DNA from: a bacterium
GTDB taxonomy: Bacteria; Patescibacteriota; Minisyncoccia; UBA6257; GWB1-50-10
NCBI GenBank assembly: GCA_021814165.1
Contig: JAKAIX010000001.1
Coordinates: forward strand, 77,623-141,622
Length of the DNA: 64,000 nucleotides
Direction: 5' to 3'
Shown here: positions 2,485 through 33,608 of the stretch, one piece after another
How positions within the stretch are numbered: position 1 is the first letter of the stretch
Layout of the letters: every line of letters starts with the position of its first letter
The notes under the pieces: generated by a model
Told to the model about the DNA's origin: nothing
Databases searched by the model: none
Seen by the model: only the letters and a program-made list of their open reading frames with translations
Position numbers and translations under genes: made by a program

Positions 2485-2847
2485 ATGAATAAGACAAAAC
2501 AACTCAATATAAAAAGAACAGCAAGAAAGAGAAGGGTCCGTTCGAAAATTCGAGGAACGGCGGAAAAGCCGCGCCTTTCGGTATATCGGAGCAATACTCA
2601 TATCTATGCCCAACTTATTGATGACGCGAAGAGGGCTACGATTGCTTCCGCGTCTTCCCTTGAAATCAAGCAGGGAACGAAGAAGATAGCGAAATCGGAA
2701 ATTGCAAAAACAGTGGGTGCGGAACTCGCGAAGAAAGGGAAAGCGGCTGGAATCAAGACTGCGGTGTTCGATCGCGGAAGTTATCGGTATCATGGTCGCG
2801 TAAAAGCGCTCGCGGAAGCGGTGCGCGAGGGAGGTATTAATTTCTAA
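2485..2847 (+). CDS. rplR: 50S ribosomal protein L18
   Basis: ...[34 protein letters not shown]... is an L18 signature. Confidence 0.92.
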
Positions 2848-2851
2848 AACT

Positions 2852-3343
2852 ATGGAAAGACAATCGCGTCCGATGCGGGCGAAAAAAAGCGAATTTCAGG
2901 ACAAAGCGCTCGAGATACGAAGAGTGACCAGGGTTGTCGCGGGCGGAAAACGTTTCAGCTTCCGTGCGACCGTCGTGGTAGGCGACATGAAAGGAAGAGT
3001 GGGAGTCGGAATCGCAAAAGGACTCGATGTTGCGGCAGCAGTCGAAAAAGCAAAGCGTCAGGCCCAAAAAGACATGGTGCGCGTTCCCCTAAAAGAGCAG
3101 CGAACGATTCCTCACGATGTCGAGGCGAAATACAGCGCAGCAAAAATCAGAATTAAACCGGCACAGAAAAACCACGGCCTTATCGCGGGTGGCGCTTCCC
3201 GTATCGTGTTGGAGCTTGCGGGAGTAAAGGATGTTTCCGCAAAAATACTCGGACGAACGACGAATAAGCTCACGAATGCGATGGCAACACTTGAAGCACT
3301 TCGCATGCTGGAAAAAGAACAACACGAAATGCAAAGCGAATAA
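2852..3343 (+). CDS. rpsE: 30S ribosomal protein S5
   Basis: ...RVTRVVAGGKRFSFRATVVVGDMKGRVGVGIAKG... are the S5 dsRBD and C-terminal domains. Confidence 0.93.
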   Translation: MERQSRPMRAKKSEFQDKALEIRRVTRVVAGGKRFSFRATVVVGDMKGRVGVGIAKGLDVAAAVEKAKRQAQKDMVRVPLKEQRTIPHDVEAKYSAAKIRIKPAQKNHGLIAGGASRIVLELAGVKDVSAKILGRTTNKLTNAMATLEALRMLEKEQHEMQSE

Positions 3344-3344
3344 T

Positions 3345-3767
3345 ATGCGTGTACACGAACTTGTAACAACCGAAAAAAGGAGGAGGAAAAAACGTCTTGG
3401 GCGGAGCGGTGCCCATGGAAAGACCTCGGGACGCGGACAGAAAGGACAGCGGGCGCGCGCGGGACATAGTGTAAAGCCCGCAGAACGGGATTTAATCCAG
3501 CGCATTCCGAAACTCCGCGGATCAAAAAATAAGAGAAAAAGCGAATCCGCGATCGTGATTCCCGTCGGAATAATCGAGAAACTCGCCGAAAACGGGAAAC
3601 TTACCCGCGCGATATTGGTCTCGAGACGCGTGATAAAAGAAATCCGGAGAAACGTGAAAATAGTAGGCCAGGGGGCCTGCATGAAGCCCGTTATGGTGGA
3701 GGGCATACCCGCTTCCAAAACCGCAAAAGAAAAGATAGAAAAAGCGGGGGGGAGCGTAAAGGCTTAA
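3345..3767 (+). CDS. rplO: 50S ribosomal protein L15 (directly after S5; no L30 gene)
   Basis: MRVHELVTTEKRRRKKRLGRSGAHGKTSGRGQKGQRARAG... is the L15 G-rich N-terminus. The ATG lies 2 nt after the S5 stop. Confidence 0.9.
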   Translation: MRVHELVTTEKRRRKKRLGRSGAHGKTSGRGQKGQRARAGHSVKPAERDLIQRIPKLRGSKNKRKSESAIVIPVGIIEKLAENGKLTRAILVSRRVIKEIRRNVKIVGQGACMKPVMVEGIPASKTAKEKIEKAGGSVKA

Positions 3768-3803: not shown

Positions 3804-5075
3804 ATGAACAAATTCCTCCAAATTTTCAAAATACCGGACTTGAGAAAGAAGGTCCTTATGGTGCTCTTTCTTCTTTTCGTATTTCGTCTTCTTGCCGCGA
3901 TTCCGATCCCGGGCATCGACGCCGTTCGTCTCCAGCAATTTCTCTCCTCGAACGAATTATTCGGATTTCTAAACATTTTTTCGGGTGGAGGCCTTTCAAA
4001 CCTCTCGATTATGATGCTTGGCGTAGGTCCTTATATCACGGCAACCATCATTATGCAGCTTCTCACAATCGTATTTCCGAAATTAAAAAAGGCGTACTAC
4101 GAAGAAGGAGCCGCGGGACAAGCAAAATTCAACCGCATCTCGCGATATCTCACCGTTCCGCTCGCGATGTTTTCGGGGTACGGTTTTCTGAATCTTCTCG
4201 CATCCCAGCGGGTATTGCCGCATCTCTCATTTCTCGAGCTCGTGAATAACGTCATTATCATCACGGCGGGCAGCATTCTTATCATGTGGATAGGAGAACT
4301 CATTTCCGAGTACAAGATAGGAAACGGCATCTCCCTTATTATCTTTGCGGGTATTGTGAGCCGCCTTCCGCAGGAAGCCGCGGCAGCGTTTTTTAACTAC
4401 AATCCGGATATGCTGCCAACCTACATTGCTTTCATATTGTTGAGTATTATCGTGATCGCGGGAGTCGTGTTCGTGAATGAAGGGGAGCGTAAAATTCCCG
4501 TGTCATACGCAAAACAAGTCCGCGGTATGAAGATGTACGGCGGAGTATCGACGTATTTGCCGCTTCGGGTGAATCAGGCGGGCGTGATTCCAATCATCTT
4601 CGCAATTTCTCTCCTCCTTTTTCCTCAATTCTTCGCACAGATGATTTCGATTGCCTCTCCGTCTCTTTCGCTCAAATTGAATGCATGGGTGACCGGTTTT
4701 TTCAACAACGTCCCGCTTTACAGTTTGATCTACTTCATTCTCGTCGTGCTTTTTACCTACTTCTACACGGCAATTACATTTGATCCGGGAGAAATCTCGA
4801 AGAACCTTCAGCGAAACGGGGGATTCATTCCCGGAATCAGACCGGGACAGGCAACCACCGACACCATCGCGAAAATTACGCGTCGTATTACGCTCTTCGG
4901 CGCTCTCTTTCTCGGTGCCATTGCCATCCTCCCGAACATCACGCAGATTGTGACCGGTATCCAGGCGCTCACGATTGGCGGCACGGCGCTCCTCATCGTA
5001 GTCGCCGTTGCACTCGAAATCATGAAACAAATAGAATCCCAGCTTACGGTAAGGGAATACGAGGGGATTTTCTAA
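3804..5075 (+). CDS. secY: Preprotein translocase subunit SecY
   Basis: 423-aa multi-TM protein starting [29 protein letters not shown]...; SecY follows L15 in the operon. Confidence 0.93.
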
Positions 5076-9638: not shown

Positions 9639-9713
9639 TGGTGGGCATGGAAGGAATCGAACCTTCGACCTCTGTCTTATCAGGACAGCGTTCTACCACT
9701 GAACTACATGCCC
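9639..9713 (-). tRNA. tRNA-Ile (anticodon GAT), CCA encoded
   Basis: Reverse complement is GGGCATGTAGTTCAGTGGTAGAACGCTGTCCTGATAAGACAGAGGTCGAAGGTTCGATTCCTTCCATGCCCACCA. All four arms pair and the anticodon loop is CTGATAA. Confidence 0.9.
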
Positions 9714-9975
9714 GTATTCTTTATAAATCCATCTTTTACTATCTTATCAATATAATCCTTTCGCTTTAGTTTTTTCAACCTCAATTCTATTTTCCTGGCA
9801 ATCTACAAGCTTGGAAATTTTTGAACAAAAACTAATTTTTTTTCGTCCATTCTCCTTGTTGTTTGAGTATGACCGTGCTGGTGTTGATACCATCTTCTAT
9901 AAATATCATTAGTACTTCCAATGTACAATCTATTGTTCGTACCATCTTTAATAATATAAACAAAGCCATCCATAG

Positions 9976-10051
9976 GCGTTCTACCATCCCGACGCGCTTC
10001 GCGGTCGGGACTCCGACCCCCGAAGGGGCGTCGGAGTTGAACTACATGCCC
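9976..10051 (-). pseudogene. Partial tRNA-Ile copy (positions 1-26) with a 50-nt double-hairpin insertion in the D-loop
   Basis: Reverse complement is GGGCATGTAGTTCA + [ACTCCGACGCCCCTTCGGGGGTCGGAGT CCCGACCGCGAAGCGCGTCGGG] + ATGGTAGAACGC. It then diverges with no anticodon or T arm. Confidence 0.7.
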
Positions 10052-10895: not shown

Positions 10896-10953
10896 GGGCC
10901 GTTAGCTTAGCTTCCGCCAGAGGCGGACCAGCCTTTGGCTGGGGTAAGAGCGC
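10896..10953 (+). pseudogene. Partial tRNA-Ala copy (positions 1-26) with a 32-nt double-hairpin insertion in the D-loop
   Basis: GGGCCGTTAGCTTAG + [cttccgccagaggcgg accagcctttggctgg] + GGTAAGAGCGC. The first 15 nt match the tRNA-Ala at 11196 exactly. Confidence 0.7.
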
Positions 10954-10959
10954 AACCTT

Positions 10960-11205
10960 ATGTTCTCTGTCTATGTCTTAAAAAGCCTGAAAAACGGGAA
11001 GAGATATATTGGGTATACGAGCAAACCTCCACAAGTAAGGTTAAAAGAACACAATAATGGTTCGAATGCATTCACCAAAAATAACAAACCATTTGTGTTG
11101 ATATATTCCGAACAGTATAGTAATAAAAGAGAAGCCATCCAGAGAGAGCACTTTCTGAAATCAGGGAAGGGGAGAGAATTTCTGGATAACAGTTTGGGCC
11201 GTTAG
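10960..11205 (+). CDS. Small standalone GIY-YIG nuclease-family protein (81 aa)
   Basis: VYVLKSLKNGKRYIGYTSKPPQVRLKEHNNG...NKREAIQREHFLK is a GIY-YIG/URI domain. Its TAG stop codon lies inside the 5' end of tRNA-Ala. Confidence 0.75.
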   Translation: MFSVYVLKSLKNGKRYIGYTSKPPQVRLKEHNNGSNAFTKNNKPFVLIYSEQYSNKREAIQREHFLKSGKGREFLDNSLGR

Positions 11206-11268
11206 CTTAGTTGGTAGAGCGCCTCGTTTGCAACGAGGAGGTCACCGGTTCGAATCCGGTACGGTCCA
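11196..11268 (+). tRNA. tRNA-Ala (anticodon TGC)
   Basis: GGGCCGTTAGCTTAGTTGGTAGAGCGCCTCGTTTGCAACGAGGAGGTCACCGGTTCGAATCCGGTACGGTCCA. G3:U70 pair present, anticodon loop TTTGCAA. Confidence 0.9.
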
Positions 11269-11412
11269 CATACAAAACCCCCGACCCCTGGTCTAGAAAA
11301 CCCTCGGTTTCCCACAGCCTTCCGACACAGGGGTTTTGCTTTTATTTTGCGAGGCAAAAAATGCTGAATCCGAATGGGTTTTTTGAGAGTATTGTAGGTT
11401 GAATCGCAACCA

Positions 11413-28883: not shown

Positions 28884-29615
28884 ATGCACATTATCTACGA
28901 GACAGACGACTTCCTTGCCATCAACAAGCCCGCAGGAGTCCTGGTACATCCGGGAAGGCCGGGGGAGACCGAAGAAGGCACGGTAGTAGGATGGCTAAGG
29001 GTTGAATATCCGGAAATAAAAGGCGTTGGGGACGAACCGAAATTCAGGCCAGGGATTGTTCACCGGCTCGATAAGGACACCTCCGGCATCCTCCTTATCG
29101 CCAAAAACCAGAGCTCCTTCGAATATTTGAAACATCTCTTCCAGACGAAAAACATAGAAAAAACCTATCTTGCGTTAGTCCACGGGAAAGTAATAGGGAG
29201 GGGAAAAATCGATAAGCCGATAGGGGTTAAATCGGGATCCGTAAAAAGAAGCGTAAGCGCAAAGAACATGAAAATGATAAAGGAGGCGATTACCGAATAC
29301 CGGGCGGTAAAACTTTTCCAAAAGGGACTTTATTCTCTCCTCAGGGTGAGTCCGAAAACCGGAAAAACACACCAGATCAGGGTACATCTTGCCTCTATCG
29401 GCCATCCGATCGTAGGGGATTCGCTTTATGGCAGAAAGAAAGAGAATGCCCTCGGTCTCAACCGCCAATTCCTCCATGCCGAATCGATCGAATTTACCAC
29501 TCCTGACGGGAGCCGGGTGCATCTTGAAGCGGAGCTCCCGCCGGATCTTGAGGAAGCGCTCCAGAAGGCGGGACGAAAGGAAGAGGACGAAACAGTTGTA
29601 GAATATGGAGACTGA
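28884..29615 (+). CDS. RluA-family pseudouridine synthase
   Basis: HRLDKDTSGILLIAK catalytic-Asp motif. Start at MHIIYETDDFLAINKP avoids overlap with the convergent gene. Confidence 0.85.
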   Translation: MHIIYETDDFLAINKPAGVLVHPGRPGETEEGTVVGWLRVEYPEIKGVGDEPKFRPGIVHRLDKDTSGILLIAKNQSSFEYLKHLFQTKNIEKTYLALVHGKVIGRGKIDKPIGVKSGSVKRSVSAKNMKMIKEAITEYRAVKLFQKGLYSLLRVSPKTGKTHQIRVHLASIGHPIVGDSLYGRKKENALGLNRQFLHAESIEFTTPDGSRVHLEAELPPDLEEALQKAGRKEEDETVVEYGD

Positions 29616-29702
29616 GCCCGGAAGGAAGCCCGGCCTCTTTCAAGGAAACCGGGCTTCCGCATATTTGACCGTGCACGTAGGTCCTGTTACACTATTTCTC
29701 GT

Positions 29703-30023
29703 ATGATCGAACAGAAATTACTCGAAAAGATAAAGCCCGGCGCTAAAGTACGGGTTACCGAAAAAATCAAAGAAGGGGACAAAGAACGCTTGAGTAACTT
29801 CGAGGGGCTTGTTATTGCCCGGAAGCATGGGAAAGAGGCAGGAGCCACTTTCACCGTCCGTGCGGTGCTTCACGAAGTGAGCGTGGAAAAAGTATATCCG
29901 ATCAACACTCCTACTATCACGAAAGTGCAGGTACTTTCCTCTCCGAAGAAAGTACATCGCTCGAAGCTTTATTTCGTACGAAACCTCTCCAGCAAGAAAC
30001 TTAGAGAGAAGCTGAAGCAATAA
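29703..30023 (+). CDS. rplS: 50S ribosomal protein L19
   Basis: 106 aa with ...FEGLVIARKHGKEAGATFTVRAV... Confidence 0.9.
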   Translation: MIEQKLLEKIKPGAKVRVTEKIKEGDKERLSNFEGLVIARKHGKEAGATFTVRAVLHEVSVEKVYPINTPTITKVQVLSSPKKVHRSKLYFVRNLSSKKLREKLKQ

Positions 30024-30037
30024 ATAAGGAATGTCTA

Positions 30038-30070
30038 GAGGCCGGGCCTCCGCAAGGAAGCTCGGCCTTT
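30038..30070 (+). terminator. Intrinsic terminator built on the GAGGCCGGGCCTC core
   Basis: gaggccgggcctccgcaaggaagctcggccttttta. Confidence 0.65.
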
Positions 30071-30133
30071 TTATGTATCTTTAAGTATTTAATTGGTATG
30101 CGCTATCACCTTGAGACATGATACAATCAAAAG

Positions 30134-30361
30134 ATGGGGAAGCGGGGAGCAAAACCACAGGGAAAGGTGAAAATAAAATGGTCGCCAAACTTTGCGTATG
30201 CCGTAGGACTCATAACTACAGATTATTCTCTAAAATATGCGAAGGCCAACTCATTGAAATTACTACCGAAACTGTATTATGATAAGCGTGTTATCTGCCT
30301 ATCGAGAAAACGAAGGGAGATAGAGAAGGCGCTGCAGGTAGAGGGGGTAACATTAAAATAA
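30134..30361 (+). pseudogene. Truncated LAGLIDADG homing-endonuclease fragment (75 aa)
   Basis: KIKWSPNFAYAVGLITTDYSL resembles the LAGLIDADG motif region. AT-rich. Abuts tRNA-Leu. Confidence 0.45.
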
Positions 30362-30362
30362 C

Positions 30363-30443
30363 GCGCGGGTGGTGAAATGGCATACACGCAGCCTTGAGGT
30401 GGCTGTGCCGAAAGGCGTGGAGGTTCGAGTCCTCTCCCGCGCA
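30363..30443 (+). tRNA. tRNA-Leu (anticodon GAG), type II with long variable arm
   Basis: GCGCGGGTGGTGAAATGGCATACACGCAGCCTTGAGGTGGCTGTGCCGAAAGGCGTGGAGGTTCGAGTCCTCTCCCGCGCA. Confidence 0.85.
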
Positions 30444-30448
30444 CTAAT

Positions 30449-30486
30449 GAAAATGCGGATGCCGATTTATCGGTATCTGCATTTTT
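30449..30486 (+). terminator. Hairpin + T-tract (repeat family C, copy 1)
   Basis: aaatgcggatgccgatttatcggtatctgcattttt. Second copy at 33572. Confidence 0.6.
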
Positions 30487-30500
30487 ATTTAATACGTGAT

Positions 30501-30516
30501 GGGAGAGGACTCGAAC
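30501..30516. repeat. Inverted copy of tRNA-Leu T-arm/acceptor 3' segment
   Basis: gggagaggactcgaac is the reverse complement of gttcgagtcctctccc. Confidence 0.6.
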
Positions 30517-30606
30517 AGGAGAGGGGTAGGGAGAACACGCTGGTCTCCCTTGGCGGAAATATTAAAACCGAGGGGTTTTAAAACAGCATCTTACAGAGAT
30601 GCTGTT

Positions 30607-30627
30607 GTTCGATTCCTCTCCCGCGCA
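30607..30627. repeat. Direct copy of tRNA-Leu 3' end (T-loop 3' half + acceptor)
   Basis: gttcgattcctctcccgcgca versus the tRNA's gttcgagtcctctcccgcgca. Confidence 0.7.
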
Positions 30628-30673
30628 CAATCCTTCGCTAAAGCTACGGAATTGCATGCATTATAATAAGAGT

Positions 30674-30991
30674 ATGTATTATGCATACATCTTGTTAAGT
30701 TCAAAATCTCATATCTTTTATTACGGATCCACAAGGAATCTCAAGACGCGATTTCAGCTTCATAACTCTGGGAAGGTTCCTTCCACAAAACCACATCTAC
30801 CATGGAAACTGGTTTGGTATGGCGGATTTGAGACAGAAAAAGAAGCTAGAGATTTCGAACTTTACCTAAAGACGGGGTCTGGAAAATCATTCGCATACAA
30901 ACATCTTGTCTCCGTAGCTTTGGCGGAGGATTTTACAAAAGGAAGAATGGGTAGTCTGAAGTCATCCGCAGTCCGAAGGACGAAGGACTGA
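30674..30991 (+). CDS. Small standalone GIY-YIG nuclease-family protein (~105 aa)
   Basis: MYYAYILLSSKSHIFYYGSTRNLKTRFQLHNSG...ETEKEARDFELYLKTGSG is a GIY-YIG/URI domain. Flanked by tRNA-Leu 3'-end copies. Confidence 0.75.
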   Translation: MYYAYILLSSKSHIFYYGSTRNLKTRFQLHNSGKVPSTKPHLPWKLVWYGGFETEKEARDFELYLKTGSGKSFAYKHLVSVALAEDFTKGRMGSLKSSAVRRTKD

Positions 30992-31000
30992 CGTAGGATA

Positions 31001-31013
31001 CCTCTCCCGCGCA
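31001..31013. repeat. Third direct copy of tRNA-Leu acceptor 3' segment
   Basis: cctctcccgcgca lies 10 nt after the GIY-YIG stop. Confidence 0.55.
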
Positions 31014-31119
31014 GGTTCTATAATTATAATTAGAACGCCCTCTGATGTATTAACAAATGCTCCTTTCTGGGAGTATTTTTGTTTCTCTAACAGAGAACGC
31101 TTTATGATACAATAATCCC

Positions 31120-32907
31120 ATGAAGAGCGAAGAGAAACAATGCCAGAATTGTAAGCAAAAATTTGCTATCGAACCCGAGGACTTCGATTTCTATGAAAAA
31201 ATAAATGTTCCTCCGCCTACGTTTTGCCCGGACTGTCGGCTCCAGCGACGCTTGGTTTTTAGAAATGAACTCTCGCTTTATAAGCGAAAATGCGATCTTT
31301 GTCAGAAAGAAATTATCTCTATGTTCCGTCCCGATGCACCGTTTACGGTGTATTGTCCTCCATGTTGGTATTCGGATAAATGGGATCCTTTGAGCTATGG
31401 AGTAGATTACGACCCTTCAAGGCCTTTTCTACAACAATTTTATGAACTCATGGGCCGCGTGCCATTGAACGCGCTCAACAATTTCTATGACACGCTCGTG
31501 AACAGCGACTATACGAATTTCGTCTCATATCTCAAGAACTGTTATCTGCTTTTCAACTCTGACTATAACGAAAACTGTTTCTACGGCGTAGAAATAGAAA
31601 GCAGCAAGGATTGCTATAACAATCTCGCGATCAACAGTTGCGAACTTTCGGCTAATGACGTTAATTGTCAAAAATGTCAGAGGACCTTTTACTCCATCGA
31701 TTGCGAGGCGAGTCATAATGTCTGGTTTTCCAAAAACCTCTCCGGTTGTTCAAACTGCTTCGGGTGCGTGAACTTACGCAACAAGCAATACTGCATGTTT
31801 AACGAACAACTTACGAAAGAAGAGTATGAACAGAGATTAAGCGAGTTTAAAACCAGTTCTCATGCTGAAGTGGAAAAACTTATCCAACAGGCACGAAAAC
31901 TATGGTCTCAAAACCCGGTTAAATTTATACATGGTCGTTTTAATACTAACGTGAGCGGCGATTACATCTACCATTCGAAAGACGTCCGTGATACTTATAT
32001 CGCTACCGAGGCACAAAACTGCCGTTATTGTTTATGGCTCCTCGTTAAACCCATGAAGGACTGCTGGGATACGACGGAATACGGAGATGGCATGGAACGT
32101 GTTTATGATTCAGTCACTATCGGCAACGGCGCAACCGATGTCCGCTTTTCTTTTCTCTGCGCTCGAAATGTTTTGGATGTAGACTACAGTTTTCTTTGTT
32201 ACGGAGGAAGTCATATGTTCGGAAGCGTAAGCCTTCGAAAGAAAGAATATTGCATACTTAACAAGGAATACTCTCCCGAGGACTATGCTAAATTAAAAGC
32301 ACAAATCATAAATGACACGAAAGAACGACCTTATACGGACAAGAAGGGGAGACAATATACTTACGGCGAGATGTTTCCGATAGAACTTTCTCCTTTCGCA
32401 TACAACGAAACATCTGCGCAACAGTTCTTTCCGTTAAACGAACAAGAAACTAAGGAGCAAGGTTATATATGGCTCGCGCCGTCGACAAAGGACTATAAAA
32501 TCGACATCAAGGCCCCAGAATTGCCCGGCACCACAGAAGAAACACCGGACGACATCACCCAAAAAACTATCGGCTGTCTGCATGAAGGAAAGTGCCAAGA
32601 ACAATGTACGACTGCCTTTAGGATCCTTCCTCAAGAATTGAGGTTCTATAAGCAGTTTAAGTTACCTATGCCGAGACTTTGCCCGAACTGCCGCCATTAT
32701 GAACGACTTGCACAAAGAAACTCTCTCAAACTCCAGCATCGCGTTTGTCAGTGTTCAGGAAAGACATCAGAAAATGGAACCTACAACAACACCGCCACTC
32801 ATTTTCACGGGTCCGAAAAGTGTCCTAACGAATTCGAGACAACATACAGCCTTAATTCTCCCGAGATTGTATACTGCGAGGAATGTTACCAACAAGAGGT
32901 TGTCTAA
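31120..32907 (+). CDS. Large cysteine-rich multi-zinc-ribbon protein (595 aa), paralog 2
   Basis: Collinear with 18038-19837: N-terminal CQNCKQKF..FYEKINVPPPTFCPDCR, C-terminal RLCPNCRHYERL...ATHFHG..CPNEFETTYS..IVYCEECYQQEV. Confidence 0.7.
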   Translation: MKSEEKQCQNCKQKFAIEPEDFDFYEKINVPPPTFCPDCRLQRRLVFRNELSLYKRKCDLCQKEIISMFRPDAPFTVYCPPCWYSDKWDPLSYGVDYDPSRPFLQQFYELMGRVPLNALNNFYDTLVNSDYTNFVSYLKNCYLLFNSDYNENCFYGVEIESSKDCYNNLAINSCELSANDVNCQKCQRTFYSIDCEASHNVWFSKNLSGCSNCFGCVNLRNKQYCMFNEQLTKEEYEQRLSEFKTSSHAEVEKLIQQARKLWSQNPVKFIHGRFNTNVSGDYIYHSKDVRDTYIATEAQNCRYCLWLLVKPMKDCWDTTEYGDGMERVYDSVTIGNGATDVRFSFLCARNVLDVDYSFLCYGGSHMFGSVSLRKKEYCILNKEYSPEDYAKLKAQIINDTKERPYTDKKGRQYTYGEMFPIELSPFAYNETSAQQFFPLNEQETKEQGYIWLAPSTKDYKIDIKAPELPGTTEETPDDITQKTIGCLHEGKCQEQCTTAFRILPQELRFYKQFKLPMPRLCPNCRHYERLAQRNSLKLQHRVCQCSGKTSENGTYNNTATHFHGSEKCPNEFETTYSLNSPEIVYCEECYQQEVV

Positions 32908-33529: not shown

Positions 33530-33571
33530 AGTAGGTTCTCGCATCGTCCCGGACGGTGCATCGGAAAAAAT

Positions 33572-33608
33572 ACGGATGCCGATTTATCGGCATCCGCATT
33601 TGTATCCA
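33572..33608 (+). terminator. Hairpin + T tract (repeat family C, copy 2)
   Basis: aaatacggatgccgatttatcggcatccgcattt. Preceded by the family D motif ctcgcatcgtcccggacggtgcatcggaaaaaa, which is also at 34583. Confidence 0.55.

Follow-up and report, generated by a model that had tools for sequence, protein, structure and literature searches.

We examined a 64,000-nucleotide (nt) stretch of DNA from a bacterium of the Patescibacteriota (lineage GWB1-50-10; assembly GCA_021814165.1, contig JAKAIX010000001.1, positions 77,623 to 141,622), hereafter called the window, whose own numbering is used throughout. In it a tRNA-Leu(GAG) gene is followed by a small gene for a GIY-YIG nuclease and then by a repeat of the tRNA 3' end. 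The original prediction, made by reading the sequence without database searches, had described this site as a hotspot for tRNA-targeting nuclease cassettes. The tRNA, an inverted copy of its T arm, two direct copies of its 3' end, and two open reading frames (ORFs), one on either side of the tRNA, all proved to be present where it had placed them. From the tRNA to the end of the GIY-YIG region the features are:

30363-30444 (+): intact tRNA-Leu(GAG), found by ARAGORN and matching Rfam RF00005 at 50.5 bits
30501-30516: inverted copy of the tRNA T arm, 16/16 complementary to tRNA nucleotides 30423-30438 (repeat finder)
30607-30628: direct copy of the tRNA 3' end, 21/22 matching (95%)
30628-30654 (+): LE, the left-end hairpin, CAATCCTTCGCTAAAGCTACGGAATTG, which begins at tRNA position 74
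30674-30991 (+): gene for a GIY-YIG nuclease of 105 residues, UPF0213/Slx1-like (PF01541, E=3.7e-16)
30911-30932 (+): RE1, a site within the ORF consisting of the codons for SVALAED, the reverse complement of LE (22 nt, 91% complementary in the window)
30971-31000 (+): RE2, a right-end hairpin-like repeat, which ends in ..CGTAGGATA and includes the stop codon
31001-31013 (+): third copy, CCTCTCCCGCGCA, 13 nt identical to tRNA positions 61-73 (the norm for the family is 61-74)
31055-31088 (+): hairpin resembling an intrinsic terminator, followed by a T run

The repeat finder groups the last 22 nt of the tRNA into a direct repeat family with three members (30423-30444, 30607-30628 and 30993-31014). 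The exact part of the third member begins 10 nt past the last base of the GIY-YIG stop codon. The chance expectation for an exact 13-nt repeat inside about 600 nt is about 1e-5, and none of the items listed for this hotspot is due to chance. What we presume to be the native trailer of the tRNA comes after the third copy, and the hairpin at 31055-31088 is probably the original tRNA-Leu terminator. An additional inverted repeat of 22 nt, 30629-30650 against 30911-30932, had been overlooked in the original prediction and turned out to be present family-wide.

The PF01541 match covers residues 1-71 of the 105-residue protein. The ATG at 30674 is the one at which homologues begin, rather than the in-frame ATG at 30599. 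We could detect 544 homologues, the best of them 70-80% identical, about 99 residues long, and drawn from many Patescibacteria lineages. In an alignment of 24 homologues, residues Y5, Y16, G18, R26, H30 and E62 are invariant, and an AlphaFold2 (AF2) model (pLDDT 82) has a single beta-beta-alpha-beta-alpha-alpha domain with residues 90-105 disordered. Given these invariant catalytic residues and the confident fold model, the nuclease looks functional. A Foldseek search of the model against the PDB ranked 1zg2 (UPF0213 protein BH0048) first, at E=1.3e-3 and 30% identity, while ranks 2-6 were all Slx1 (entries including 6seh, 7cq2 and 4xlg) at 29-36% identity and probability 1.0, with modest E-values of about 1e-3; I-TevI was far weaker, at E=0.33 and 11% identity. 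The modelled structure places the protein in the UPF0213/Slx1-like (URI) branch rather than with I-TevI/Seg, UvrC or the restriction enzymes. It resembles the UPF0213 proteins YhbQ and BH0048 (COG2827) in both size and single-domain architecture; no NCBIfam model matches it. In eukaryotes Slx1 works with Slx4 on branched DNA, and we know of no genomic lifestyle that has been assigned to UPF0213 proteins. In the literature that we searched, we found no description of a link to tRNA genes or of a repeat architecture for either UPF0213 or Slx1. The nuclease gene is the only ORF between the repeats, where there is no DDE, HUH, serine/tyrosine recombinase or Cas1 transposase.

A scan of one genome per species yielded 80 loci with a homologous GIY-YIG gene (cited below, like the other related loci, by handles such as L074). 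A tRNA on the same strand ends 26-255 nt before the ATG in 53 of the 80, and no more than 75 nt before it in 42. The tRNA partner varies, being one for Ser (four anticodons), Gln (two), Asn, Trp, Tyr, Leu or Pro, and in L074 the gene upstream is that of transfer-messenger RNA (tmRNA). In most of the remaining loci either the contig ends just upstream or a T-arm/3'-end fragment stands ahead of LE. The family has outliers in Alphaproteobacteria, Bacteroidota and Cloacimonadota. As a separate observation, the Rfam LOOT RNA (RF03000) scores above its gathering threshold near two of the GIY-YIG genes, at 2670-2790 (-) of L041, about 100 nt upstream of LE, and at 4614-4740 (-) of L050.

On the far side of the gene, an exact copy (at least 10 nt) of the 3' end of the locus's own tRNA lies 2-30 nt past the stop codon in 41 of the 52 loci where this was testable; control windows taken from those loci gave 5 of 438. 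Of the 41 copies, 27 start at C61, where the 3' strand of the T stem begins; the modal length of the copy is 14 nt, corresponding to tRNA positions 61-74, and an encoded CCA follows it in about a quarter of loci. Because so many loci carry such a copy, whatever the tRNA species, the one at 31001-31013 follows a rule of the family and is not a local accident. This recurrence supports the notion of cassettes with tRNA-derived repeats as first put forward, to which the sequences now add conserved ends predicted to form hairpins. Of the two outcomes that the original prediction had named as refuting it, unrelated GIY-YIG ORFs and missing repeats at homologous loci, neither was obtained.

Direct repeats of tRNA 3' ends are a classic signature of integrative elements. 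The copies might therefore be the att-site scars of islands that were integrated at the tRNA 3' end by an integrase and then deleted, with the GIY-YIG gene as leftover cargo; the repeated use of one tRNA end, by the structured X module described below and again by the cassette, would also resemble tandem islands. However, no integrase is found near the site (29000-32900) and none is implied in the 80 loci. The repeats in these enclose just about 400 bp (41 loci), with LE and RE abutting them, and the identical tiny unit recurs in dozens of lineages. We regard this explanation as excluded in practice.

The ends of the unit are well defined. LE stands directly past the tRNA end in nearly all 80 loci, and across dozens of phylum-level lineages LE and RE2 abut the two tRNA copies. 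The family consensus of LE, (A/T/C)ATCCTTCGC-TAAA/CAAG-GCT(A/T)C(G/A)GAAT(T/A/G)GC, begins at tRNA position 74/75 and is an imperfect palindrome, in whose outer stem tRNA nucleotides 73-74, or the encoded CCA, pair with the final bases of LE. Pairing in this local hairpin reaches 98.9%, and 3 of its pairs have undergone compensatory changes. The consensus of RE2, ..TCCGAAGC-NNAA-GCG(A/T)AGGATA, abuts C61 of the downstream 14-mer and often holds the stop codon. LE and RE1 form 22-nt inverted repeats, of which RE1 is internal; RE2, the true right end, is partly complementary to LE. In L035, L045 and L047 the leader from LE to the start codon holds 3-4 tandem copies of a 30-40-nt unit that includes the 3' part of LE (GAATTGCATGCC...), and because these leaders are expanded in tandem the left end is prone to local amplification.

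RE1 encodes the end of the last helix in the AF2 model, with the family motif S-V-A-L-A-K-D-F, and its codons are the reverse complement of LE. In 39 distinct loci, 89.6% of LE:RE1 positions are paired, and double-change cells number 48, compared with 16.5 in shuffled data, where 0 of 500 shuffles reach 48. Synonymous switches between GCT TTA and GCC TTG in RE1 track the LE loop as it changes between TAAA and CAAG, and a replacement between Val and Glu in RE1 tracks the change between TAC and TTC in LE. Since the complementarity is kept by compensatory changes, this part of the ORF is, judging from the alignments, constrained by nucleotide complementarity to LE.

The distribution of the cassette suggests that it moves. 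The gene order rplS-tRNA-Leu(GAG) is kept in 53 related loci (56-88% identical to the window in L19, within a range of 53-88% for relatives with empty sites), and none of the 53 has a GIY-YIG cassette there. L006, L056 and L011 have ends in tandem or on their own, and there are degenerate copies as well. In two cases the downstream 14-mer matches a tRNA of another locus instead of its neighbour: that of L012 matches tRNA-Ser of L054, and that of L067 matches tRNA-Asn of L042. Such foreign 14-mers would be the expected product of co-conversion during transfer. In loci without an intact tRNA, moreover, the downstream 14-mer is a good tRNA end and the upstream one has diverged, which suggests that the element can carry the 14-mer along and that the 14-mer does not arise afresh every time. 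The empty site in the 53 relatives, the tandem and solo ends and the foreign 14-mers together support movement with co-conversion.

Covariation of the kind seen both in the LE hairpin and in the LE:RE1 helix is also what RNA structures produce, and it could be taken to mean that the nuclease is a domesticated, housekeeping enzyme co-transcribed with tRNAs, with LE, RE and the 14-mer acting as RNA elements rather than as mobile ends. LE would then be a 5' stabilising hairpin, LE:RE1 an RNase III stalk and the 14-mer a tRNA-like 3' processing signal. The 70-80% identity of the protein across deep Patescibacteria lineages would suit such a role, and the ATG often stands right after LE (directly after it in the minimal cassette copies), which implies dependence on the tRNA transcript. 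Against this, G-U pairs do not exceed A-C mismatches in LE:RE1 (28 compared with 33), counts that are uninformative and give no specific signal of RNA pairing, and the 14-mer has no pairing partner nearby. The gene is missing from the orthologous tRNA-Leu site in the 53 relatives, the tRNA partner differs from genome to genome, and tandem, solo-end, truncated and pseudogenised copies exist. Because the distribution is so patchy and shifting, a housekeeping role with RNA-processing signals is unlikely.

We favor, with a probability of roughly 0.6, the reading that a compact (about 370-400 bp) selfish cassette, with the GIY-YIG gene as its cargo, colonises tRNA 3' ends, probably by a mechanism like that of SegB. 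In order, the cassette comprises the tRNA, or in its place a tRNA-like site, through position 74, then LE, the ORF of 99-105 residues containing RE1, RE2, the copy of tRNA 61-74, and the native trailer. SegB is a free-standing GIY-YIG homing endonuclease encoded among the tRNA genes of phage T4. It recognises a site that includes the TΨC-arm motif GGTTCRANTCC, cuts preferentially right after CCAR at the tRNA 3' end, and acts on many different tRNA genes (PMC2330249). In both systems a GIY-YIG gene lies among or next to tRNA genes, and the preferred SegB cut corresponds to the position at which the cassette is inserted. The span 53-76 corresponds to the tRNA-like fragment that is kept upstream of LE in the window and in loci without an intact tRNA. 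The cassette gene likewise sits beside its presumed target gene, being tRNA-adjacent in the proportion of loci given above and absent after tRNA-Leu(GAG) in the 53 relatives. The likeness that we draw is one of insertion geometry. It does not extend to the proteins: SegB is a phage protein of about 220 residues, of the Seg/I-TevI type with a DNA-binding region, whereas the cassette encodes a chromosomal bacterial protein of about 99 residues with a single domain. Nor have hairpin ends, a complementarity like that of LE:RE1, or a 14-nt duplication of the tRNA end been described for segB.

By this analogy, the conserved TΨC arm (GGTTCRANTCC) would be the DNA sequence that the nuclease recognises, and the tRNA gene would be broken at its 3' end or close to it. 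Repair from a cassette-bearing copy would follow, in which homology is provided on the left by the intact tRNA and on the right by the 61-74 copy together with the trailer, so that the cassette would be copied in and the essential tRNA left working. The insertion would split the TΨC motif from its 3'-end/CCA context: the upstream copy would keep the motif, with LE next to it, and the downstream copy would keep the 3' end, with RE2 before it. This separation could shield occupied sites from being cut again. Expression of the GIY-YIG gene would probably come by read-through from the tRNA promoter. A LAGLIDADG remnant upstream of tRNA-Leu and two mirror-image cassettes at tRNA-Ala and tRNA-Ile, all described below, would be independent invasions of a like kind that duplicate 5' parts of tRNAs.

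Several considerations weigh against this reading. We infer all of its mechanistic steps (cleavage, cutting of the empty site, and transfer) by analogy. The nearest structural relatives of the modelled protein are UPF0213 and Slx1, a structure-specific nuclease, and not the Seg/Tev enzymes, and no DNA-binding module (NUMOD, helix-turn-helix or zinc finger) is recognisable in the protein of 99-105 residues by Pfam, NCBIfam or the AF2 model. Simple homing has no need of hairpin ends or of LE:RE1 complementarity. The intact neighbouring tRNA still has the TΨC motif, which makes the immunity of an occupied site a conjecture, and a right arm of 14 nt is short for RecA-type recombination. A duplication of fixed length, 14 nt, at many different tRNAs is more suggestive of a mechanistic target-site duplication. 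The exact empty-site allele, in which the T loop and 3' end are joined to the native trailer, has 0 matches in metagenome contigs, leaving no precise pair of filled and empty sites. Finally, a strong terminator-like hairpin parts the window cassette from the tRNA-Leu promoter, no promoter-like site lies ahead of that cassette, and it may be silent.

Because of the hairpin ends, the LE:RE1 pairing, the fixed 14-nt duplication and the Slx1-like fold, a transposon-like alternative stays alive, and we treat it as a serious if doubtful one. It supposes a new kind of true DNA transposon, in which LE and RE are inverted hairpin repeats at or near the termini, the GIY-YIG protein is a structure-guided transposase, and the 14 bp are a target-site duplication arising from cuts staggered by 14 nt, at the boundary of T loop and T stem and just past the acceptor end. 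The fixed start of the duplication at C61, its modal length of 14 nt and the fact that each tRNA species copies its own sequence would all follow from this. So would the preservation of the 22-nt LE/RE1 inverted repeats by compensatory changes, one of which forces the exchange of Val and Glu in the protein, and a nuclease whose closest structural relatives cut branched or hairpin DNA. The mirror-image cassettes, too, duplicate tRNA positions 1 to about 16 and have hairpins at the junction. On a neighbour-joining tree of the nuclease the tRNA types are intermixed, suggesting frequent switching of targets, but a tree of a 99-residue protein is weakly resolved, too weakly to settle between homing and transposition.

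Other observations fit a transposon poorly. We know of no GIY-YIG transposase, and 99 residues are very few for synapsis and strand transfer. RE1 is not terminal but lies 70-80 nt inside the right boundary. No near-identical multi-copy set was seen within one genome. The diverged upstream and good downstream 14-mers, together with the foreign matches in L012 and L067, suggest that the 14-mer can travel with the element. In its fullest form the idea would define a new class of prokaryotic mobile element, in which a Slx1/UPF0213-type GIY-YIG protein of about 99 residues is the sole protein needed to insert a unit of about 400 bp. Insertion would be guided by the LE/RE hairpins and by the cruciform-prone TΨC or D arm, and would regenerate the tRNA through a target duplication of 14 bp (3'-type) or about 16 bp (5'-type). 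This proposal we hold a little more tentatively still.

Seen as a selfish cassette, our preferred reading, the unit belongs to a known kind, the free-standing homing-endonuclease genes directed at tRNA genes. Novel within that kind are the type of protein, the presence of defined hairpin ends and of a target duplication, and the distribution, which is wide in Patescibacteria with outliers beyond them. Integrative elements and casposons offer a further comparison, since insertion at a tRNA 3' end regenerates an intact tRNA and leaves a direct repeat in those elements as well; casposons produce target duplications of 14-15 bp and often use tRNA genes. They differ in spanning kilobases and in relying on a tyrosine/serine integrase or Cas1, whereas the cassette has about 400 bp and a GIY-YIG gene only. 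In the full-text literature that we searched, which mostly lacks subscription journals, and in the two recent papers on insertions in rRNA and tRNA genes of Patescibacteria, GIY-YIG cassettes at the ends of bacterial tRNA genes are not described; a prior description elsewhere is possible.

If the cassette reading is right, it would give a genomic lifestyle to many small proteins annotated as 'GIY-YIG nuclease family protein'. Were the new-element proposal true instead, the UPF0213-like proteins of Patescibacteria and of some other phyla would be the nucleases of the smallest autonomous DNA elements known. In the reduced genomes of Patescibacteria, at least three nuclease families would be invading tRNA genes, on the 5' as well as the 3' side and without introns. 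Such invasions duplicate the part of the tRNA that would otherwise be destroyed, which suggests that essential RNA genes serve as safe harbours for selfish genes. They would also explain the tRNA-fragment repeats and the contig breaks found beside tRNAs in such assemblies. A nuclease of about 100 residues specific for the tRNA T arm or for hairpins would be of practical interest.

The original prediction had also pointed to a mirror-image arrangement at tRNA-Ala, with repeats of the tRNA 5' end. This arrangement is real, and the window contains a second example:

10896-11205 (+): 5'-type GIY-YIG cassette at tRNA-Ala, with an ORF of 81 residues (ORF 10960) running into the intact tRNA-Ala at 11196-11269
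9716-10051 (-): 5'-type GIY-YIG cassette at tRNA-Ile, whose gene lies at 9639-9713 (-)

A 5'-type cassette starts with a duplicate of tRNA positions 1 to about 15; two GC-rich hairpins and a duplicate of what remains of the D arm come next, with the ORF and then the intact tRNA at the end. At tRNA-Ile a pseudo 5' tRNA-Ile fragment with two hairpins occupies 9974-10051; the GIY-YIG ORF (ORF 9973, minus strand) has an in-frame TAG at 9803-9805 and its homology continues past this stop, and the gene is probably a pseudogene of a 5'-type cassette. The three GIY-YIG ORFs of the window (30674 at Leu, 10960 at Ala and 9973 at Ile) are 26-31% identical, with E-values from 3e-10 to 3e-4. The relationship that pairwise alignment was to decide holds for the Leu and Ala types at 31% identity over 74 residues (E=3e-10), and the Leu and Ile types align at E=6e-5. 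Elsewhere the 5'-type architecture recurs at tRNA-Val (L124), tRNA-Gln (L004) and tRNA-Ser (L009). In L004, L009 and L016 (about 2640-3300) one tRNA, for Gln, Ser or Asn, has a 5'-type cassette upstream and a 3'-type cassette downstream, so single tRNA genes can be occupied on both sides.

Between tRNA-Leu and the GIY-YIG cassette of the window lie two further structured elements:

30446-30489 (+): perfect 20-bp hairpin followed by a T run, terminator-like and dispersed (from folding)
30496-30628 (+): structured X module of about 130 nt, with an inverted T-arm copy (30501-30517), three hairpins, and a direct copy of tRNA 53-74 (30607-30628)

A copy of the 20-bp hairpin, 91% identical, occurs 3 kb away at 33567-33601, and the hairpin is not kept at the same position in L084, the closest relative; it looks like a repetitive extragenic palindrome (REP)-like or terminator repeat. 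The segment 30445-30672 folds far better than its shuffles (z = -9). Within the X module the inverted T-arm copy pairs with the direct 53-74 copy in a 17-bp stem that closes the three hairpins, and the module is kept with compensatory changes in L084 (960-1095) and L094. A covariance model, R1, revealed a fourth copy after tRNA-Ala in L094, both arms of which match tRNA-Ala and not tRNA-Leu, while the arms of the other L094 copy match tRNA-Leu; the two L094 copies lie at 3028-3184 and 481-648. Among about 760 kb of related loci, R1 matches two places in L094, one in L084 and one in the window, and nothing else. In L094 the X module has no GIY-YIG gene after it. Rfam has no match for the module, which may be a further non-coding element, or a small RNA, aimed at the tRNA end.

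These elements modify one part of the original prediction, that the GIY-YIG gene is bracketed by repeats derived from the tRNA 3' end. The right-hand copy at 31001-31013 stands as described, whereas the left-hand one at 30607-30628 is the distal arm of the X module and not a bare relic. The window cassette is therefore situated behind the tRNA-like distal arm of a pre-existing X module and not behind tRNA-Leu itself; this accounts for the intact tRNA-Leu being another 184 nt upstream and having a terminator-like hairpin of its own.

On the other side of tRNA-Leu, between it and the ribosomal protein gene rplS, are the following:

30097-30120 (+): conserved motif TTGGTATGCGCTATCACCTTGAGA upstream of the LAGLIDADG ORF, resembling tRNA-Leu positions of about 14-37, from the D arm to the anticodon loop
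30134-30361 (+): AT-rich ORF of 75 residues, an internally deleted LAGLIDADG_3 homing-endonuclease gene (phmmer)

The 75-residue ORF ends 1 nt before tRNA-Leu. Direct scans of it against Pfam and NCBIfam gave no match, whereas an exhaustive phmmer search brought up proteins of 215-240 residues whose N-termini align with its residues 1-34 and whose C-termini align with its residues 28-74; these proteins match PF14528 (LAGLIDADG_3). Because its termini alone align to PF14528 proteins, the ORF is best explained as a LAGLIDADG_3 gene that has lost about 150 residues from its centre, and is by this comparison a remnant and not a functional member. It retains only the N- and C-terminal 35-45 residues or so of those proteins and lacks a pair of LAGLIDADG_3 domains with a catalytic acidic residue in each motif, and its motif GLITTDYSL has a Tyr at the place where homologues read GLITTDGCL.

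The orthologous site was compared in 80 related metagenome loci anchored on the neighbouring rplS (L19). In 36 of them the gap is empty, with tRNA-Leu(GAG) 12-136 nt past rplS, and in 11 a full-length LAGLIDADG ORF fills the gap between rplS and tRNA-Leu(GAG), ending 15-24 nt before the tRNA. Presence and absence at this site is the polymorphism expected of a homing-endonuclease gene, and with the homology to PF14528 it bears out the LAGLIDADG call, made at first from a single motif-like segment. The motif TTGGYATACGCTAnnAnYTTGAG (about 24 nt) stands ahead of every full-length LAGLIDADG ORF (L105, L112, L113, L123, L142 and L146). Its likeness to the tRNA-Leu of the same locus is significant in L146 (score 34, against a shuffle maximum of 24) and not significant in the window alone. 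In L149 a LAGLIDADG_3 homologue adjoins tRNA-Leu(CAA) and not tRNA-Leu(GAG), at about 120-760 of the locus, with the match at -2382..-1741 relative to the end of rplS. The full-length homologues P0123, P0129 and P0131 have C-terminal tails that resemble read-through into a tRNA gene.

LAGLIDADG homing-endonuclease genes and group I introns are known to colonise the rRNA and tRNA genes of Patescibacteria (PMC11270868, PMC13011429). The host group is the same, stable RNA genes are heavily colonised in both cases, and the 75-residue ORF derives from a LAGLIDADG_3 gene. The intron elements, however, lie inside the RNA gene, while the ORFs described here lie outside an intact tRNA and beside a partial duplicate of it; Rfam detects no intron RNA at the tRNA-Leu locus, and PMC13011429 makes no mention of GIY-YIG genes at tRNA genes. 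A group I intron or a split or permuted tRNA was considered as the source of the tRNA fragments and rejected, as Rfam found tRNA only, at the gathering threshold and at E<=1. An intron-containing tRNA was likewise rejected, as ARAGORN with introns allowed gave low-quality spurious models only.

The remaining tRNA genes of the window, for Val and Glu, have no GIY-YIG neighbour. Directly 3' of the hotspot, at 31120-32907, is a cysteine-rich ORF of 595 residues with many CxxC pairs and without a Pfam match. Two related contigs break at the tRNA-Leu region or the X module, L082 ending at 3705 and L084 at 1095, and the repeats there appear to cause assembly breaks in metagenome contigs of this organism and its closest relative.

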